From NCBI GenBank assembly GCA_021791675.1, contig JAJYWE010000011.1, forward strand, positions 1 to 56,807: 56,807 bases of DNA, written 5' to 3'. Each line of letters starts with the position of its first letter. Position 1 is the stretch's first letter. Position numbers and translations under genes: made by a program. Below are positions 36,362-42,341 of the stretch, in pieces. This DNA comes from Actinomycetes bacterium. GTDB lineage: Bacteria; Actinomycetota; Acidimicrobiia; Acidimicrobiales; JAKAOS01. The notes under the pieces were generated by a model. It saw nothing but the letters and a program-made list of their open reading frames with translations. It searched no databases and was not told the origin of the DNA.

Positions 36362-37981
36362 CTACTTCGTCAGGTACCACTGCTCCGGCGTGATGAACTG
36401 GTACGCGTTCGGCACGTACCCGCCGAGGTGGGTCGACACCACGGCCGGGAAGCCCTGGATGGGGTTGCCGCCCTCCTCGGGCTGCCAGACCACGGGGAGC
36501 TGCTTCGCGATGTAGGCCTCGTAGGCGTCCATGGCCGCCTGGCTCTCCGAAGAGGGCACCTTCGTCGTCGCCCGGATCAGCCGGTCGGCCACCGGGTTCG
36601 AGTAGTTCTCGTAGTTGGCCGAGGCGCCGGTCGCCCACAGCTCCTCGCCGGAGGGGTAGTAGTCGGGTGCGAAGCTCCATCCGCCGCCCCAGTTCTCCGC
36701 CGTCCACTGGCAGATCGACTGGTTGGGCGAGCAGGGGGTGATCGTCGAGACGACCGTCGCGTAGGGGTGCGTCGTGAGGTGGATCTGGATCCCGACGAGT
36801 GCAGCCTCCGCGGTGAGGTCTCGCATCGACAGCGCGAGCGCCTGCTCGCCGTAGGTGTAGTCGAGGTTGAACGAGATCCCCTCGCCGGCGCTGATCCCCG
36901 CGCCGCATGCCGTGGGGCCGGTGCCCGGCCGGACGCACGTCGTCCTCCCGCCCGGCACCACCTTCCATCCGTGGCGGGTGAGGATCCTGGCCGCGTCCGA
37001 CACGCTGAAGGGGTAGGGGTTCGCGAGCTGGTTCTCGTTCGCGAAGTGGTTGGGCGGCTCGGACGGGACTGGTCCGTAGTCGGGGACGGCGGTTCCGTGA
37101 TAGAAGGCGCTGATCCAACCTTGCTGGTTGACCAGGTGTTGGAACGCCTGGCGGAAGTAGAGCTGGCGGAAGATGGGGCCGACCTTCGGGTTGTTGAGGT
37201 TGAGCGGGAAGTAGCCGACGGCGAAGACGTAGCTGTTGCTCGGCCGGTAGCCGCCTGCGAGCACGCTCTTCTCCTGGGGGAGGTCCTGGGGGGGCACGTA
37301 GCCGACGGTCAGCGAGCCCGGCGAACCGGTGAGCAGGTTGAACTCCGAGTAGTCGCTCGTGAACGGCTCCTCGACGAACTTGGCGATCCTCGGCTTGTCC
37401 GGTCCGGTGTAGGAGGGGTTTGGCTCGAACGTCGCCGCGCCCTCGACCGTGAACGCGGTGAGCTTCCAGGGCCCGTCGACGACACTCCAGATCGGGCTCT
37501 TGACGAAGGCCGCCTCGTCGGTTGCCTGGCTCGCGAGGAAGTTGTAGACCGCGAGCGCTCCCTGCTTGGTCGTGTCGGGAAGGTTGGGCGAGGACGCGCT
37601 CGGCGCCGGGGCCGACAACGACGTCCGGTCCCACGCCAGTGGGAGCGGGGTGATCTCGCTCAGCTGGTTGTAGAGGTACCAGTCGGGGTTGTACGGCTGG
37701 GTGAGGTGCAGGACGATCGTCTGGGCATTGGGAAGCTGCATGGACGCGACGTTCTCGGGGAACAGCCCCTGCACATAGCCGTAGAAGTTCGCCGGGTCCG
37801 CCTTCACGAGGTTGATCCAGAACTCGACGTCCCGGCTCGTCACCGGCTGGCCGTTGGACCACATGTAGTGCTTGAGCGTGATCGTGACCGTCTGGTCGTG
37901 GTCCGACCAGACCGGGCGGTTGCCGACGGAGTAGTTGAAGTCCACCGAGGCGGTGTTGTTGTTCCCGAACCAGTAGAGGGG
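36362..37981 (-). pseudogene. 3' part (540 codons) of an OppA-like substrate-binding lipoprotein gene split by IS607
   Basis: Open frame reads PLYWFGNNN...WSNGQPVTSRDVEF...VVDGPWKL...YFRQAFQ...PEQWYLTK; it has no signal peptide and stops at the IS junction. Confidence 0.92.
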
Positions 37982-38036
37982 TTCTGAACTGCTCCAGCAT
38001 CAGTCCGTGATACACCACGTACATGTGTTCTAGTGA

Positions 38037-38042
38037 TAGAGT
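38037..38042 (+). promoter_or_regulatory. Probable -10 element (TAGAGT) of a leaderless tnpA transcript
   Basis: TANNNT hexamer 6 nt upstream of the GTG at 38049, with no clear SD. Confidence 0.5.
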
Positions 38043-38048
38043 GGGACC

Positions 38049-38708
38049 GTGAACCTGACCGAGTGGGCGCGTCGCCAGGGTATCCACCCGCAGACCGCCT
38101 ACAACTGGTTCCATGCGGGCACGCTCCCCGTCCCGGCGGTCAGGATCAACAAACGGACCATCCTCGTCCAGCCGGACGCAGCTCTCGGCACTCCAGGAGA
38201 GACCATCGGGCTCTACGCCCGCGTTTCATCCCACGACCAGCGGGGAGACCTGGACCGCCAAGTGGCAAGGCTCACGACGTGGGCCGCAACGACTGGTCTT
38301 CCCGTGGTCCGGGTGGAAGCAGAAGTTGGCTCGGGAATGAACGGGTCACGTTCCAAGCTCCGCCGCCTGCTCGCTGATCCGACGGTCACCACCGTCGTCG
38401 TTGAGCACCGGGACCGCCTGGCCCGGATGAACGCAGAGCTGGTCGAAGCAGCACTGTCGGCCCATGGTCGGAGGCTCGTGGTGCTCGACGACGGCGAGAT
38501 GGACGATGACCTGGTGCGGGATATGACCGAGGTGCTCACGAGCTTCTGTGCCCGCCTCTATGGACGCAGGTCTGCCCGCAACCGGGCAGAGAAGGCCCTG
38601 CGCTGCGCGGCCCACGACGTGGGGCCGATGGCACTGGCCAAGGAAGCGACGGTCAACACGGCGACGACACCGCGAGTGCCACACCCGACGGGCACGACGA
38701 GGCCGTGA
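38049..38708 (+). CDS. tnpA: IS607-family serine recombinase transposase
   Basis: N-terminal MerR-like HTH (EWARRQGIHPQTAYNWF), YARVSS catalytic Ser, EVGSGMN, VEHRDRLAR, DLVRDMTEVLTSFCARLYG. Confidence 0.96.
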   Translation: MNLTEWARRQGIHPQTAYNWFHAGTLPVPAVRINKRTILVQPDAALGTPGETIGLYARVSSHDQRGDLDRQVARLTTWAATTGLPVVRVEAEVGSGMNGSRSKLRRLLADPTVTTVVVEHRDRLARMNAELVEAALSAHGRRLVVLDDGEMDDDLVRDMTEVLTSFCARLYGRRSARNRAEKALRCAAHDVGPMALAKEATVNTATTPRVPHPTGTTRP

Positions 38709-40396
38709 GCAGGCGGCTTCGCAAGATCTCCCCACCGTTCGTGGTGGCACCACCATCGGGCGTTCGCGTCCGCACCAGGCTTCGGATGAGCGACACCGAC
38801 GGCGAGGTGCTCGTGGCACTGGGAACCTACCTCGGCTCCCTTGCATCCAAGGACCTGGCCGAGCGTTGCCGCCAGGGCAGGCTCGATACCAAGGGGAAGG
38901 CCGACTCCCGTCGTGAGCGCAAGCGCTCGCTCACGGCTGCGAGCTCGTCCCGCTGGGCAGGGGCGATCACCCGGACCAGCGAGGACGCCTTCGAGCTCGC
39001 CATGCGCAACCTCGTCGCCGAGCGCCGGAGTCTCCAGGCCCGCATCATCCAGATTCGCCGTCGGCTCTCGGTCCCGGCTGGAGGACGCCGTGGGCGCGCC
39101 CGTGGCTATGCCACCCAGGCCGAGCGGTTCCAGAAGCAGCGTCGCTTGCAGGTGCTCGAACATCGCCTGGCCGAGGCCGAGGCCCGTTTCGACGCAGGGC
39201 GAGTGTCGATCTGCCGTGGCGGCAAAGCCCTGGCCAAAGCCCGCCGCCACCACCTGGACGCAGCTGAGCTGACCGTGGATACGTGGCGGGAGCGCTGGCG
39301 GGCGAAGCGGCTGTTCCTCACCGCGGACGGGGAGAAGGACCAGCGCCTCGGCAACCTCACGATCCGCTGGCACCCAGATGGGCACTGGGTGGAGATCGCC
39401 CTCCCACAGGGTCTCGCCCACCTCGCCAACCGGCCCCACGCCCGCTACCGGCTCTCCTGCCCGGTCGCCTTCTCCTATCGAGGGGACGAGGTGGCAGCCC
39501 AGGCCATGACCGGGGCGGTGCGCTACGACATCGCCTTCTTGCCCGAGAAGGGGCGCTGGTACCTCGATGCCTCATGGACGTACCCGGTCCAAGAGCCCCC
39601 CACCCTCGACCAGCTCCGGGAGCATGGGGTTCTGGCTGTGGACGTGAACGCGGATCACCTCGCAGCGATGGTGCTCGACCCCTCGGGGAACCCGGTCGGC
39701 CGACCGCTCAGGTTCCCGCTCTCGCTTGCTGGTCTTCCCGCTACCACCCGTGACGGACATCTGCGCCAGGCGATCTCGGATCTACTTGGTATCGCAACGG
39801 CCGACGGCTGTCGGGCCATCGTGATCGAGGACCTGGACTTCGCCGAGGCCAGAGAGGTAGGCCGAGAGCGTGCGGGGAACCGTCCTTCGCGTGGCAAGAG
39901 AGGGCGCGGCTTCCGTCGCCTGGTCGCCGGCATCCCGACGGCCACGTTCCGCCAACTGCTCGTCCAGATGGCAACCAACGCCGGGCTCGTCGTCATCGGG
40001 GTCGACCCGGCCTACACGAGTGAATGGGGCGCTGAGCACTGGCTTCGCTCCCTTCAGGAGATCTCCGTCGATGCCACGGGCCACCATGCGGCGGCCCTTG
40101 CCATCGGGAGACGCGGGCTCGGACAGCGAGCACGGCAACGGACGAGGTGTGACTCGACCCCAGCAGCGCATGGGGAAGAGAGAGCTACCCGCCCGGTCGT
40201 GCGGTCCAGGGGTGCCGGGCAACCGGCAGTCCTGTCCGAGCAGCGAATCAGGGAAACTGGGACCCGAGGGGCCAGAGGGCAGCCACACCTGCGGCAGAAG
40301 ACCCGAAGGGCTGAACGGCGTTTCCCGGTGGACCAGGTGGCCCAAGACCGTTCGGGGCCACCCGCAAGGTGGGACTTAGTTCCGCTGAGTGTCTAG
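38705..40396 (+). CDS. tnpB: TnpB-family RNA-guided RuvC protein, long atypical variant (563 aa)
   Basis: GTGA overlap with tnpA; RuvC-I LAVDVNADH, RuvC-II IVIEDLDF, VDPAYTS; no CxxC zinc finger; GHHAAALAI at the RuvC-III position. Confidence 0.88.
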   Translation: MSRRLRKISPPFVVAPPSGVRVRTRLRMSDTDGEVLVALGTYLGSLASKDLAERCRQGRLDTKGKADSRRERKRSLTAASSSRWAGAITRTSEDAFELAMRNLVAERRSLQARIIQIRRRLSVPAGGRRGRARGYATQAERFQKQRRLQVLEHRLAEAEARFDAGRVSICRGGKALAKARRHHLDAAELTVDTWRERWRAKRLFLTADGEKDQRLGNLTIRWHPDGHWVEIALPQGLAHLANRPHARYRLSCPVAFSYRGDEVAAQAMTGAVRYDIAFLPEKGRWYLDASWTYPVQEPPTLDQLREHGVLAVDVNADHLAAMVLDPSGNPVGRPLRFPLSLAGLPATTRDGHLRQAISDLLGIATADGCRAIVIEDLDFAEAREVGRERAGNRPSRGKRGRGFRRLVAGIPTATFRQLLVQMATNAGLVVIGVDPAYTSEWGAEHWLRSLQEISVDATGHHAAALAIGRRGLGQRARQRTRCDSTPAAHGEERATRPVVRSRGAGQPAVLSEQRIRETGTRGARGQPHLRQKTRRAERRFPVDQVAQDRSGPPARWDLVPLSV

Positions 40397-40402
40397 GAAC
40401 GG
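40145..40402 (+). ncRNA. Predicted omega-RNA (right-end RNA) scaffold overlapping the tnpB 3' end; guide would extend from 40403
   Basis: Stems AGGTGTG/CACACCT, CCCCA/TGGGG, TGCCGG-GCAA-CCGGCA, GGTGGCCC/GGGCCACC, ACTTAG/CTGAGT; loop CCGTTC is complementary to the terminal GAACGG. The 5' boundary is uncertain. Confidence 0.7.
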
Positions 40403-40735
40403 TCGGTACATGAGGACCTGGAACTGGCTGATGTTGGCGTAGCTCGAGTGCTGCGCGCTGATGAGGGGGAAGATGTAGTTGGGCGGCGTCGAGGGGCCCT
40501 CTGCGAAGGTGACCGTCCCGCCGGCAATCGGCGCGCCGGTGGCTGTCGAGGAGCCGGTCGTCGACGTCGCCGACGAGGAGGACTTCGCGGACGGGTGGGA
40601 GCTGCCGCAGGCCGCGAGCAGCAGCGCGGCGGCGGCGAGGCCGGCGGCGGCGCGACGTGCGCCGTGGCTCGGGCGGGAGCTCGGGGAGGGGCTCGGGCGG
40701 GAGCTCGGGGAGTCGGGGGAGGTGGTTGCGGTCAT
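40403..40735 (-). pseudogene. 5' part (111 codons) of the IS607-interrupted OppA-like lipoprotein gene
   Basis: Signal peptide with lipobox LAAC, GGTVTFAE, PNYIFP, FQVLMYR; ATGA-coupled to the upstream hydrolase. Confidence 0.92.
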
Positions 40736-41544
40736 GGAGCCGGGGCCTTTCGGTGCTGGTCGAGGAAACGGAGCAGTGCGGTGTTGAAGTCGTCGGGGTG
40801 CTCCCAGAGGCAGGCGTGACCGCCCCGGGTCGTCGCCCACTGGGCGTTCGGGACGAGGTCGAAGAGCTGCCTCGAGAGCGAGACGGGGATCAGGATGTCC
40901 TGCTCCCCGGCGAGGACGAGGGTGGGCACGGCGAGGGCGCCGATGCGTCCGGTGGTGTCGTGGGTCTGGATGGCGGAGAGCTGCGCCAGGTAGGCGTGCA
41001 CCGGTTGGTCGATCATCGACAGGGCGACGTCCATCTCCCCCGCCTCGTCGGGCCGCTCGGCGAAGAACGCAGGGGTGAAGGCCCAGAGGGCCACGTCGGC
41101 CATGACCACGGAGAGCCCCGTGAAGCGCGCGAGCTGCTCCCAGAGCGCGAACCTCCGCCCGCAGAACGGCCCCGGTGCGGCGTAGGTGCAGGCGAGGGTG
41201 ACGCTCGAGAGCCGCTCTGGGTGCGCGAGCGCGTACTCCTGGGCGATCATCCCACCCATGGACACACCCACGAGGTGGAAGCGCTCGACCCCGAGCGCGT
41301 CGACGAGGCCGTGGAGGTCCTCCGCGAGGAGGCCGGTCGTGTAGGGTCCCGCTGGTTTCGCGCTGTGGCCGACGCCCCGGTTGTCGTAGCGGAGGACCTC
41401 GTACCCCGCCTCGACCAGCGCCGGGACCTGGAGGTCGTAGGTCACGAGGTCGTCGGCGAGCCCGTTGACGAGCACGACGAGCTCGTCGCCCCCACCATCC
41501 CGCCGGTAGTTGATCTCGATCCCGTTCGTCGTCGTCGTGGTCAT
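40732..41544 (-). CDS. Alpha/beta hydrolase (3-oxoadipate enol-lactonase-like)
   Basis: YDNRGVGHS, GVSMGG nucleophile elbow, GEQDIL, GGHAC. Confidence 0.9.
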   Translation of the reverse strand: MTTTTTNGIEINYRRDGGGDELVVLVNGLADDLVTYDLQVPALVEAGYEVLRYDNRGVGHSAKPAGPYTTGLLAEDLHGLVDALGVERFHLVGVSMGGMIAQEYALAHPERLSSVTLACTYAAPGPFCGRRFALWEQLARFTGLSVVMADVALWAFTPAFFAERPDEAGEMDVALSMIDQPVHAYLAQLSAIQTHDTTGRIGALAVPTLVLAGEQDILIPVSLSRQLFDLVPNAQWATTRGGHACLWEHPDDFNTALLRFLDQHRKAPAP

Positions 41545-42341
41545 GCACTCGCCTCCCCAATCGGGCCCGGCCGTTCCCGGGCGTCGTTCGCCGTGCCCGA
41601 GAGCACCCGGTCGATCAGCTCGTCGTTCAGTGAGAAGTGCTCCTGCGCGAGCAGGGCCGCCCGCGCTGTGTCGCCTTCGGCGATCGCCTCTGCGAGCGCC
41701 GGGTGTTGGTGCTCGGCTCGCTGGCGCAGCTCCGCGCTGAACGGCTCGGTGCCGAGCCCGAAGGTGACCTCGGCACGGAGCTGGAGGCTGAGCTGCTGCC
41801 AGAAGGGGTTGTGCGTGGCGGCGGCGATCGCCTCGTGGAGTGCGGCGTCCGCCGCCCGTGACGCCGCACGGTCGGAGTCGGCGTCGACGTAGCGCTGCGC
41901 CGTGGCGAGGATCGCCTCGCGCTCGGACGGGGTGGCCCGCTCGGCGGCGAGGCGGGCGATCTCGGCCTCGGCGCTCGAGCGGAAGTCCAGCAGGCTGCGC
42001 AGCCGGTCCCAGTTGGGCAGGAGCGTCCGCCGGATGATCGCCGCGAACTCCGGGTCGCACTCGCCGGTCACGAACGTGCCCCCGTTGCGGCCGCGACGGA
42101 CCCGGACGTAGCCGGTCGCAGCGAGCTTCGCGATGGCCTCACGCACGCTCGTGCGGCTGACCCTGAGCGACGCGGCGAGCTCGCGTTCGGGGGGGAGGCG
42201 CTGGCCCCGTACGAACTGGCCGAGCGCGATGGCCGTGACGAGGCGCTCGGCGATCAGCTCGCCGGAGTTGCGGGCCTCGAGCGGCTCGAGGAGGCTCCCG
42301 GACCAGACGGCGAGCGACTCCAGCCGCTGCCCGGGGCTCAT
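41541..42341 (-). CDS. GntR/FadR family transcriptional regulator
   Basis: GQRLPPERELAASLRVSRTSVREA...RRGRNGGTFV; FCD motif DAALHEAIAAATHNP. Confidence 0.92.
   Translation of the reverse strand: MSPGQRLESLAVWSGSLLEPLEARNSGELIAERLVTAIALGQFVRGQRLPPERELAASLRVSRTSVREAIAKLAATGYVRVRRGRNGGTFVTGECDPEFAAIIRRTLLPNWDRLRSLLDFRSSAEAEIARLAAERATPSEREAILATAQRYVDADSDRAASRAADAALHEAIAAATHNPFWQQLSLQLRAEVTFGLGTEPFSAELRQRAEHQHPALAEAIAEGDTARAALLAQEHFSLNDELIDRVLSGTANDARERPGPIGEASA

Follow-up and report, generated by a model that had tools for sequence, protein, structure and literature searches.

A TnpB relative with a histidine at the predicted RuvC-III catalytic position, carried by an IS607-family element of an Acidimicrobiales bacterium

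The stretch of DNA analyzed here (termed the window) comprises 56,807 nucleotides of contig JAJYWE010000011.1, from an actinomycete of the order Acidimicrobiales (assembly GCA_021791675.1). On its forward strand it contains an intact insertion sequence (IS) of the IS607 family, which extends from position 37982 to 40400 and carries two genes. The upstream gene, tnpA (38049..38708), encodes a serine transposase of 219 amino acids, identified by the NCBIfam model NF033518 (transpos_IS607; 195.7 bits, cut-off 110, E 5e-58) and by the Pfam Resolvase family (E 5e-20). The downstream gene is the tnpB of the element, an open reading frame (ORF) for 563 amino acids (38705..40396, forward strand), whose GTG start codon overlaps the tnpA stop codon by 4 nt (GTGA). 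In the related loci L053, L055, L057, L059 and L061 the end of tnpA is instead separated from the start of tnpB by about 400 nt.

A preliminary description of this DNA, made from the sequence without database searches, regarded the 563-residue protein as an unusually long TnpB that lacks the zinc finger and possesses a histidine at the apparent third catalytic position of the RuvC domain. Re-reading of the sequence showed the ORF and the codons of the three residues to be correctly placed: D313 of RuvC-I starts at 39641 (the D313-V-N315 motif spans 39641..39649), E375 of RuvC-II occupies 39827..39829, and H460 occupies 40082..40084 (CAC CAT, encoding two consecutive histidines). The whole protein contains five cysteines (residues 55, 170, 252, 369 and 482). 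None of them is located between E375 and H460, so the absence of a CxxC...CxxC zinc finger stands as originally proposed. The protein also falls below the cut-offs of the curated TnpB families (NF040570 of NCBIfam and the Pfam OrfB domains). The guided_TnpB model NF040570 reaches 36.5 bits where 100 are required, a Pfam scan revealed no OrfB_IS605 match, and the Cas12f1-like_TNB domain was matched below threshold over residues 414-440 (15 bits versus 26.3). Likewise, a sequence-profile search of PDB chains returned insignificant matches only, the best being TnpB/Cas12f (E 0.13) and a coiled-coil segment of coronin (E 0.11).

In order to place the protein relative to TnpB, we compared two alignments: one of 29 diverged members of its family (35-61% identity), and one of 14 canonical TnpBs drawn from related genomes and from a homolog search. 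The invariant columns of the canonical alignment include G185-D187-G189 (RuvC-I), E271 (RuvC-II), C344, C347, C363 and C366 (zinc finger), and D373, A376, A377, I380 and G384 (RuvC-III). The hhalign comparison links the two families with a probability of 96.7% (E 4.6e-10) and pairs D313 with D187, N315 with G189, and E375 with E271. With the default local setting the lack of the zinc-finger segment ends the alignment at residue 441, while a greedy setting (mact 0.02) extends it to cover residues 18-478. The extended alignment pairs H460 with D373, A463/A464 with A376/A377, and I467 with I380, i.e. it brings the AA..I portion of the DxNAAxNI motif into register, and it leaves the four canonical cysteines with no counterpart. 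In this register the RuvC-III aspartate of the D-x-N-A-A-x-N-I motif is replaced by H460, as the preliminary description had suspected. An AlphaFold2 model built from 19 homologs (mean predicted local distance difference test score, pLDDT, of 65; predicted template modeling score, pTM, of 0.52) was submitted to Foldseek, which returned Cas12f chains as the top matches (E 5e-8), followed by Cas12g, Cas12k, RuvC from T. thermophilus (template modeling score 0.64 on the target), and the ISFba1 TnpB (PDB 8iaz, E 1e-3). Judged by these profile and fold comparisons, the ORF encodes a relative of TnpB that retains the RuvC-I aspartate and the RuvC-II glutamate in a domain of the RNase H fold.

Two other aspartates were considered as alternatives. 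D456, in the segment ISVDAT, would have undermined the assignment of H460 if it occupied the RuvC-III site; it is conserved neither among the 19 close homologs nor among the 29 diverged ones, and was rejected. D434, in VDPAYTS, was rejected as a compensating residue, since the same strand of canonical TnpB and of Cas12f also possesses an aspartate.

The histidine is a property of the whole family. All 19 close homologs and all 29 diverged ones have H460; D313, N315, E375 and R470 are likewise invariant in the latter set. Among 270 family proteins examined, all 187 that match both motif patterns have the histidine; the other 83 are fragments or were missed by the patterns, and several of these visibly have it as well. 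At the level of genomes, 80 loci were kept, 74 of which have an ORF with a DPAYTS-type motif, and the histidine is present in all 74. The neighboring position 461, on the other hand, is variable, with H, E, Q, D and A among the residues found. The family has a very large, mostly actinobacterial membership: more than 5145 homologs were found among 8000 scored candidates, with the length kept at about 560 residues; 2281 representatives at 50% clustering match the 563-residue protein (E up to 1e-3); and at least 587 loci, including the 80 kept, were confirmed in reference genomes, with hosts in Acidimicrobiales, Streptomyces, Mycobacterium, Nonomuraea, Arthrobacter and others. The replacement of aspartate by histidine is hence family-wide and not the private decay of one copy, which settles the conservation check called for by the preliminary description. 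That the family strictly keeps both of the first two catalytic residues as well as the histidine suggests that D313, E375 and H460 form a working active site. We also observed that the invariant asparagine N315 (39647-39649), two residues past the RuvC-I aspartate, takes the place of the invariant glycine of canonical TnpB (GIDLG); it may be a change co-adapted to the aspartate-to-histidine swap.

The extra length of the protein has two sources, of which the preliminary description had recognized one, namely an enlarged basic N-terminal lobe. The hhalign comparison with canonical TnpB reveals an Arg-rich insertion of about 85 residues (approximately 131-215) in that lobe, and residues 1-300 have a net charge of +27, so this part of the claim holds. 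The lobe does not account for all of the excess, since about 85 of the approximately 160 extra residues form a C-terminal tail (residues 479-563, 40139..40396). The tail shows no constraint at the protein level: residues 476-563 are predicted to be disordered (pLDDT about 32) and have diverged completely among distant relatives. Comparison of the window with loci L003-L005 gave differences at the first, second and third codon positions of 0.117/0.127/0.319 in the core and 0.216/0.204/0.179 in the tail. Beneath the tail lies a near-invariant DNA block, AAGACCGTTCGG (approximately 40344-40355); 24 loci translate it in frame 0 and 13 in frame 2, and in one of the latter the ORF has already stopped before the block is reached. 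The +2 frame of the window (...GVTRPQQRMGKRELPAR...) resembles the in-frame tails of loci L022 and L048.

What is conserved in this region appears to be an RNA. We aligned the stretch between the end of the core and the AGGAAC terminus of the element in 55 loci and analyzed it with RNAalifold, which predicted 21 base pairs, 20 of them with compensatory changes. With the structure fixed, 89% of the alignment cells are paired; sliding the partners by 1-3 columns lowers this share to 30-43%. The covariation score of 0.572 (versus 0.07-0.08) is attained by none of 500 shuffles. The helices map to positions 40140-40193, 40282-40295 and 40338-40360 of the window. The last of these (helix 5, 40338..40360, forward strand) is the best supported hairpin, with a 6-bp stem and the near-invariant loop AAGACCGUUCG. 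When the single sequence 40136-40400 was folded, the z-score was -1.55 and 13 of 200 shuffled sequences did equally well; such folding is uninformative in DNA rich in G+C, and the case for the RNA therefore rests on covariation. A scan of 37800-40600 against Rfam 15 (E up to 1) matched no family, RAGATH-18 included. We propose a candidate omega-RNA scaffold (40140..40400, forward strand) under the last approximately 260 nt of tnpB, ending at AGGAAC. A structured RNA that covers the 3' end of tnpB and ends at the right end of the transposon is a hallmark of TnpB loci, here indicated by covariation. Read together with the codon and frame comparisons, the tail of about 85 residues is best seen as a side effect of ribosomes reading through the omega-RNA gene, and the working protein probably stops at about residue 478.

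Two observations were made on metagenome contigs. The depth summed over the contigs of four runs rises several-fold over 38456-38562 and 40275-40381, and many contigs match 40333-40365 only, which contains the helix 5 hairpin, and then diverge, leaving loose ends at 40333 and 40365. The segments 38456-38562 and 40275-40381 look like the most conserved cores common to many related elements in mine-drainage and sediment communities.

The boundaries of the element were fixed by the gene that it interrupts and by the intact homologs of that gene. A family-5 ABC substrate-binding protein (SBP) gene on the reverse strand is divided into a C-terminal part (36362..37981, beginning with PLYWFGNNN; Pfam SBP_bac_5, E 2.8e-34) and an N-terminal part (40400..40735, with a lipoprotein-like signal ...LLLAAC... 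and ending with ...QVLMYRP), and the sequence LMYRPLYWF is unbroken in five of five intact homologs from related genomes. The dinucleotide GG is found at both flanks (37980-37981 and 40401-40402), and deletion of 37980-40400 restores ...MYRPLYWF... in frame. IS607 elements typically have ends flanked by the same dinucleotide, with no longer target duplication. The GG at the left junction (37980..37981) is the putative crossover dinucleotide of the serine recombinase, and one of the GG copies belongs to the target. The left end of the element (37982..38048) starts with TTCTGAACTGC and extends up to the tnpA start codon. Among 17 aligned loci that have a full tnpA, conservation sets in at T-nnn-AACTGC; these loci were obtained by alignment upstream of tnpA, while a fixed-string search for the left end matched two loci. 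In the same 17 loci the flank to the left of the element ends with GGG or GGGG, and the window reads GTAGAGGGG. The right-end terminus AGGAAC (40395..40400) is present in 55 of 55 aligned loci (in one of them as AGGGAC), and past it conservation drops sharply. Over 57 loci the right end reads (T/C)AGGAAC, then GG, usually T, and beyond that the similarity breaks down; in the window TAG (40394-40396), the stop codon of tnpB, is embedded in the conserved TAGGAAC. By analogy with other TnpB systems, the GG and the adjoining target DNA (40401..40420, forward strand) are predicted to be the template of the guide segment.

These features, i.e. a transposase of the IS607 family, defined ends and a split target gene, agree with the earlier view that the gene still resides in a mobile IS607 element. 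One metagenome-assembled genome carries four full copies with differing flanks (L055, L057, L059 and L061). Among 57 loci, tnpA is found upstream on the same strand in 24, and tnpB is solo in 33. Further data come from a comparison with metagenomes, limited to contigs of four runs at a 90% likeness setting. One contig of run X11 joins 37979 directly to 40401, omitting 2421 bases, and this joint coincides exactly with the predicted empty site; as a single contig with a side of only 27 nt it is a weak observation. Run X11 also yielded contigs with the occupied junctions. Additional contig joints (e.g. 37693 to 40463 and 38497 to 40631) resemble paralogous SBP genes or other elements.

The preliminary description considered the protein a member of a poorly characterized TnpB clade; with respect to novelty this has to be revised, as TnpBs that combine a D-E-H site with the lack of a zinc finger have been known since 2023. 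Altae-Tran et al. (PNAS 2023, PMC10691335) divided TnpB into five major clades and, in the accessible text of the paper, defined the group RIIIr-4 by mutation of the RuvC-III aspartate to histidine and by the lack of the C4 zinc finger. Based on these two defining features, rather than on the position in a tree, we infer that the family described here belongs to RIIIr-4, which it also resembles in being large and conserved. The same text features archaeal MazE-linked and viral members of RIIIr-4, whereas the branch described here is actinobacterial, about 560 residues long and borne by IS607 elements. Its authors reason from the conservation of the rearranged site that it is catalytically active, propose 'potentially altered substrate specificities' for such sites, and state that the fully inactivated branches of TnpB/Cas12 have all three catalytic residues mutated and have fixed host-gene partners. 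Nety et al. (2023, PMC10278001) screened 59 orthologs from the five major clades and reported, in the text available, that some of them process omega-RNA without activity on double-stranded DNA directed by the transposon-associated motif (TAM).

Our preferred interpretation, to which we assign a probability of about 0.5, is that the protein is an active RNA-guided nuclease with a D313-E375-H460 site and a G-rich TAM, serving the retention of the transposon. According to this model, the 3' part of the tnpB transcript would fold into the omega-RNA scaffold ending with AGGAAC, and the continuation of the transcript into the flanking DNA past the right end would provide the guide. TnpB would bind this RNA and recognize a G-rich TAM similar to GGGG, like the sequence to the left of the element. 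The D313-E375-H460 center, possibly assisted in catalysis by the invariant N315, would cleave the empty site left by excision, and recombinational repair would then restore the element. Translation running across the RNA gene would give rise to the 85-residue tail. Transcription of the guide past AGGAAC and the identity of the TAM with the G-rich left flank are suggested by analogy with characterized systems; on the same grounds, the occupied right junction, which reads GGAAC-GG and not xGGG-GG, would spare the element.

The main argument for activity is the retention of D313, E375 and the histidine in elements that still move. Histidine is known from other active sites of the RNase H fold, e.g. 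in Argonaute (DDH/DEDH), in the RuvC domain of Cas9 (H983) and in Thermus RuvC (H143). It is also a poorer ligand of Mg2+ than aspartate, and this, together with the lack of reported activity, forms the main argument against the model. In the literature searched, as far as its text was accessible, we found no published biochemical activity for a clade of the RIIIr-4 type; a 2026 review is silent on it, and the accessible text of PMC10278001 names an active rearranged ortholog for RII-r5 only and says nothing of RIII-r4. Further points that weigh against the model are that the pairing of H460 with the aspartate position depends on the greedy extension of the alignment and on the motif register, that the AlphaFold2 model is only of moderate quality, and that the genome from which the window derives has a single full copy of the element.

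The replacement of a metal-ligand aspartate and the loss of the zinc finger would also fit a cleavage-dead protein, in which the histidine abolishes catalysis and which binds DNA under RNA guidance, helping the element without cutting, e.g. by repression or by marking of sites, in the manner of TldR, Cas12k and Cas12m. The silence of the searched literature about activity and the solo tnpB genes in 33 of 57 loci can be read in the same way, although solo tnpB copies are usual in active TnpB families, too. We consider such a binder unlikely, as D313, E375 and the histidine stay invariant and the gene has not left its mobile IS, whose ends are conserved; moreover, the fully inactivated branches described in PMC10691335 lose all three residues and gain host partners. 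An alternative that keeps the catalysis is an enzyme with altered chemistry or substrate, i.e. a nickase, a nuclease dependent on Mn2+ or another transition metal, or a protein acting on single-stranded DNA or on RNA. Histidine favors metals softer than Mg2+, and the segment that replaces the zinc finger is located between RuvC-II and RuvC-III, a region that handles substrate access in Cas12f/TnpB. The altered specificities suggested in PMC10691335 and the orthologs of PMC10278001 that process omega-RNA without cleaving double-stranded DNA at a TAM point in the same direction. No sequence data, however, set this possibility apart from ordinary double-strand cleavage, and homing, if the element depends on it as other IS605/IS607 elements with TnpB do, would call for a double-strand break; we therefore regard it, too, as doubtful.

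A variant that borrows from both of these alternatives, and that we rate as quite improbable, is that the D-E-H center makes no double-strand breaks and the protein nevertheless serves the mobile IS607 as a guide-RNA binder or nickase, e.g. by marking or opening G-rich sites, in the target or in the donor, for use by the serine transposase. If true, it would establish a cleavage-independent role for a transposon-borne TnpB. Finally, the gene might be thought to be decaying or miscalled, either an ORF artifact of GC-rich DNA or a pseudogene that has acquired a mutation of its own. About 70% of the window is G+C, long spurious ORFs abound in it, the curated TnpB models stay below their cut-offs, and the last 85 residues are not conserved as protein. 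Against this, the thousands of homologs keep the length of about 560 residues and form 2281 representatives at 50% clustering, the excess of differences at third codon positions in the core indicates purifying selection, and the histidine is universal. Decay of the core protein was rejected on these grounds, and we give the whole idea next to no credence.

Comparison with characterized systems puts the model into perspective. With canonical TnpB of the ISDra2 type and with Cas12f the protein shares the WED-REC-RuvC order, the RuvC-I aspartate, the RuvC-II glutamate, the V-D-P-x-Y-T-S strand, and the AA..I..G helix of RuvC-III. It differs from canonical TnpB in the change of aspartate to histidine, in the change of glycine to asparagine after the RuvC-I aspartate, in a short helix that replaces the zinc finger, in the N-terminal insertion, and in the unconserved tail. 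The IS607 TnpBs of the ISFba1 type, with RNAs derived from RAGATH-18 (PDB 8iaz), resemble our system in the serine transposase, in the guide RNA at the 3' end, and in the fold. The TAMs reported for characterized IS607 TnpBs by Ren et al. (Cell Res 2024, PMC11061315) are AGGAG or GAGGG, i.e. G-rich like the left flank of the window. According to the 2026 review these TnpBs have about 390 residues on average, and they are demonstrated nucleases, whereas the protein described here has 563 residues, the histidine and no zinc finger, and its RNA matches neither RAGATH-18 nor any other Rfam family. In the nuclease-dead TldR, Cas12k and Cas12m, too, one canonical catalytic position is not occupied by aspartate, but in the present family the other two residues and the histidine are invariant, and the gene is found in a mobile IS with a transposase and conserved ends, with no fixed host-gene partner seen. 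The combination typical of TldR-like proteins, i.e. catalytic loss and immobilization by host genes, is thus not observed.

The interest of the system is modest insofar as its kind has already been described, and would rise if the action of the D-E-H site were shown. If it cuts, the known RuvC chemistry of Cas12/TnpB would be widened, and enzymes that are free of a zinc finger, recognize G-rich TAMs and come from hosts with high G+C content would become available. If it does not cut, the guide-RNA protein retained by a mobile element is one without cleavage activity, and current ideas on what TnpB does for its transposon would have to change. Despite the size of the clade (2281 representatives and at least 587 reference-genome loci), no experiment on it was found in the literature searched. 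For experimental work, the analysis provides the exact ends of the element, a likely RNA scaffold of about 260 nt with the AAGACCGUUCG loop, and a likely GGGG-like TAM; residues 479-563 are probably dispensable in constructs, while the RNA beneath them is not.

The same genome contains a second IS607-like element (contig C138:43627-45521; loci L002, L087 and L092). Its tnpA part has 71% DNA identity to tnpA of the window, and its TnpB is of the typical kind, with RuvC-III reading DRDINAAKNL. The guided_TnpB matches are split over two separate open frames, and the gene may be frameshifted. Related transposases are thus paired with TnpBs of two clades within one genome.

A few observations concern the target gene and its surroundings. 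The N-terminal part of the split SBP has at least 13 matches in the genome, which implies the existence of many paralogs, and the loss of one copy may cost little. In contigs of all four metagenome runs, 24 bases present in the window near 40666 are missing; the deletion affects the Ser/Thr-rich linker region of the lipoprotein. An ORF similar to alpha/beta-hydrolases (40732-42060, reverse strand) ends at 40732-40734 and overlaps the SBP start codon ATG (40735-40733) in the sequence ATGA, which suggests that the two genes were co-transcribed before the insertion.

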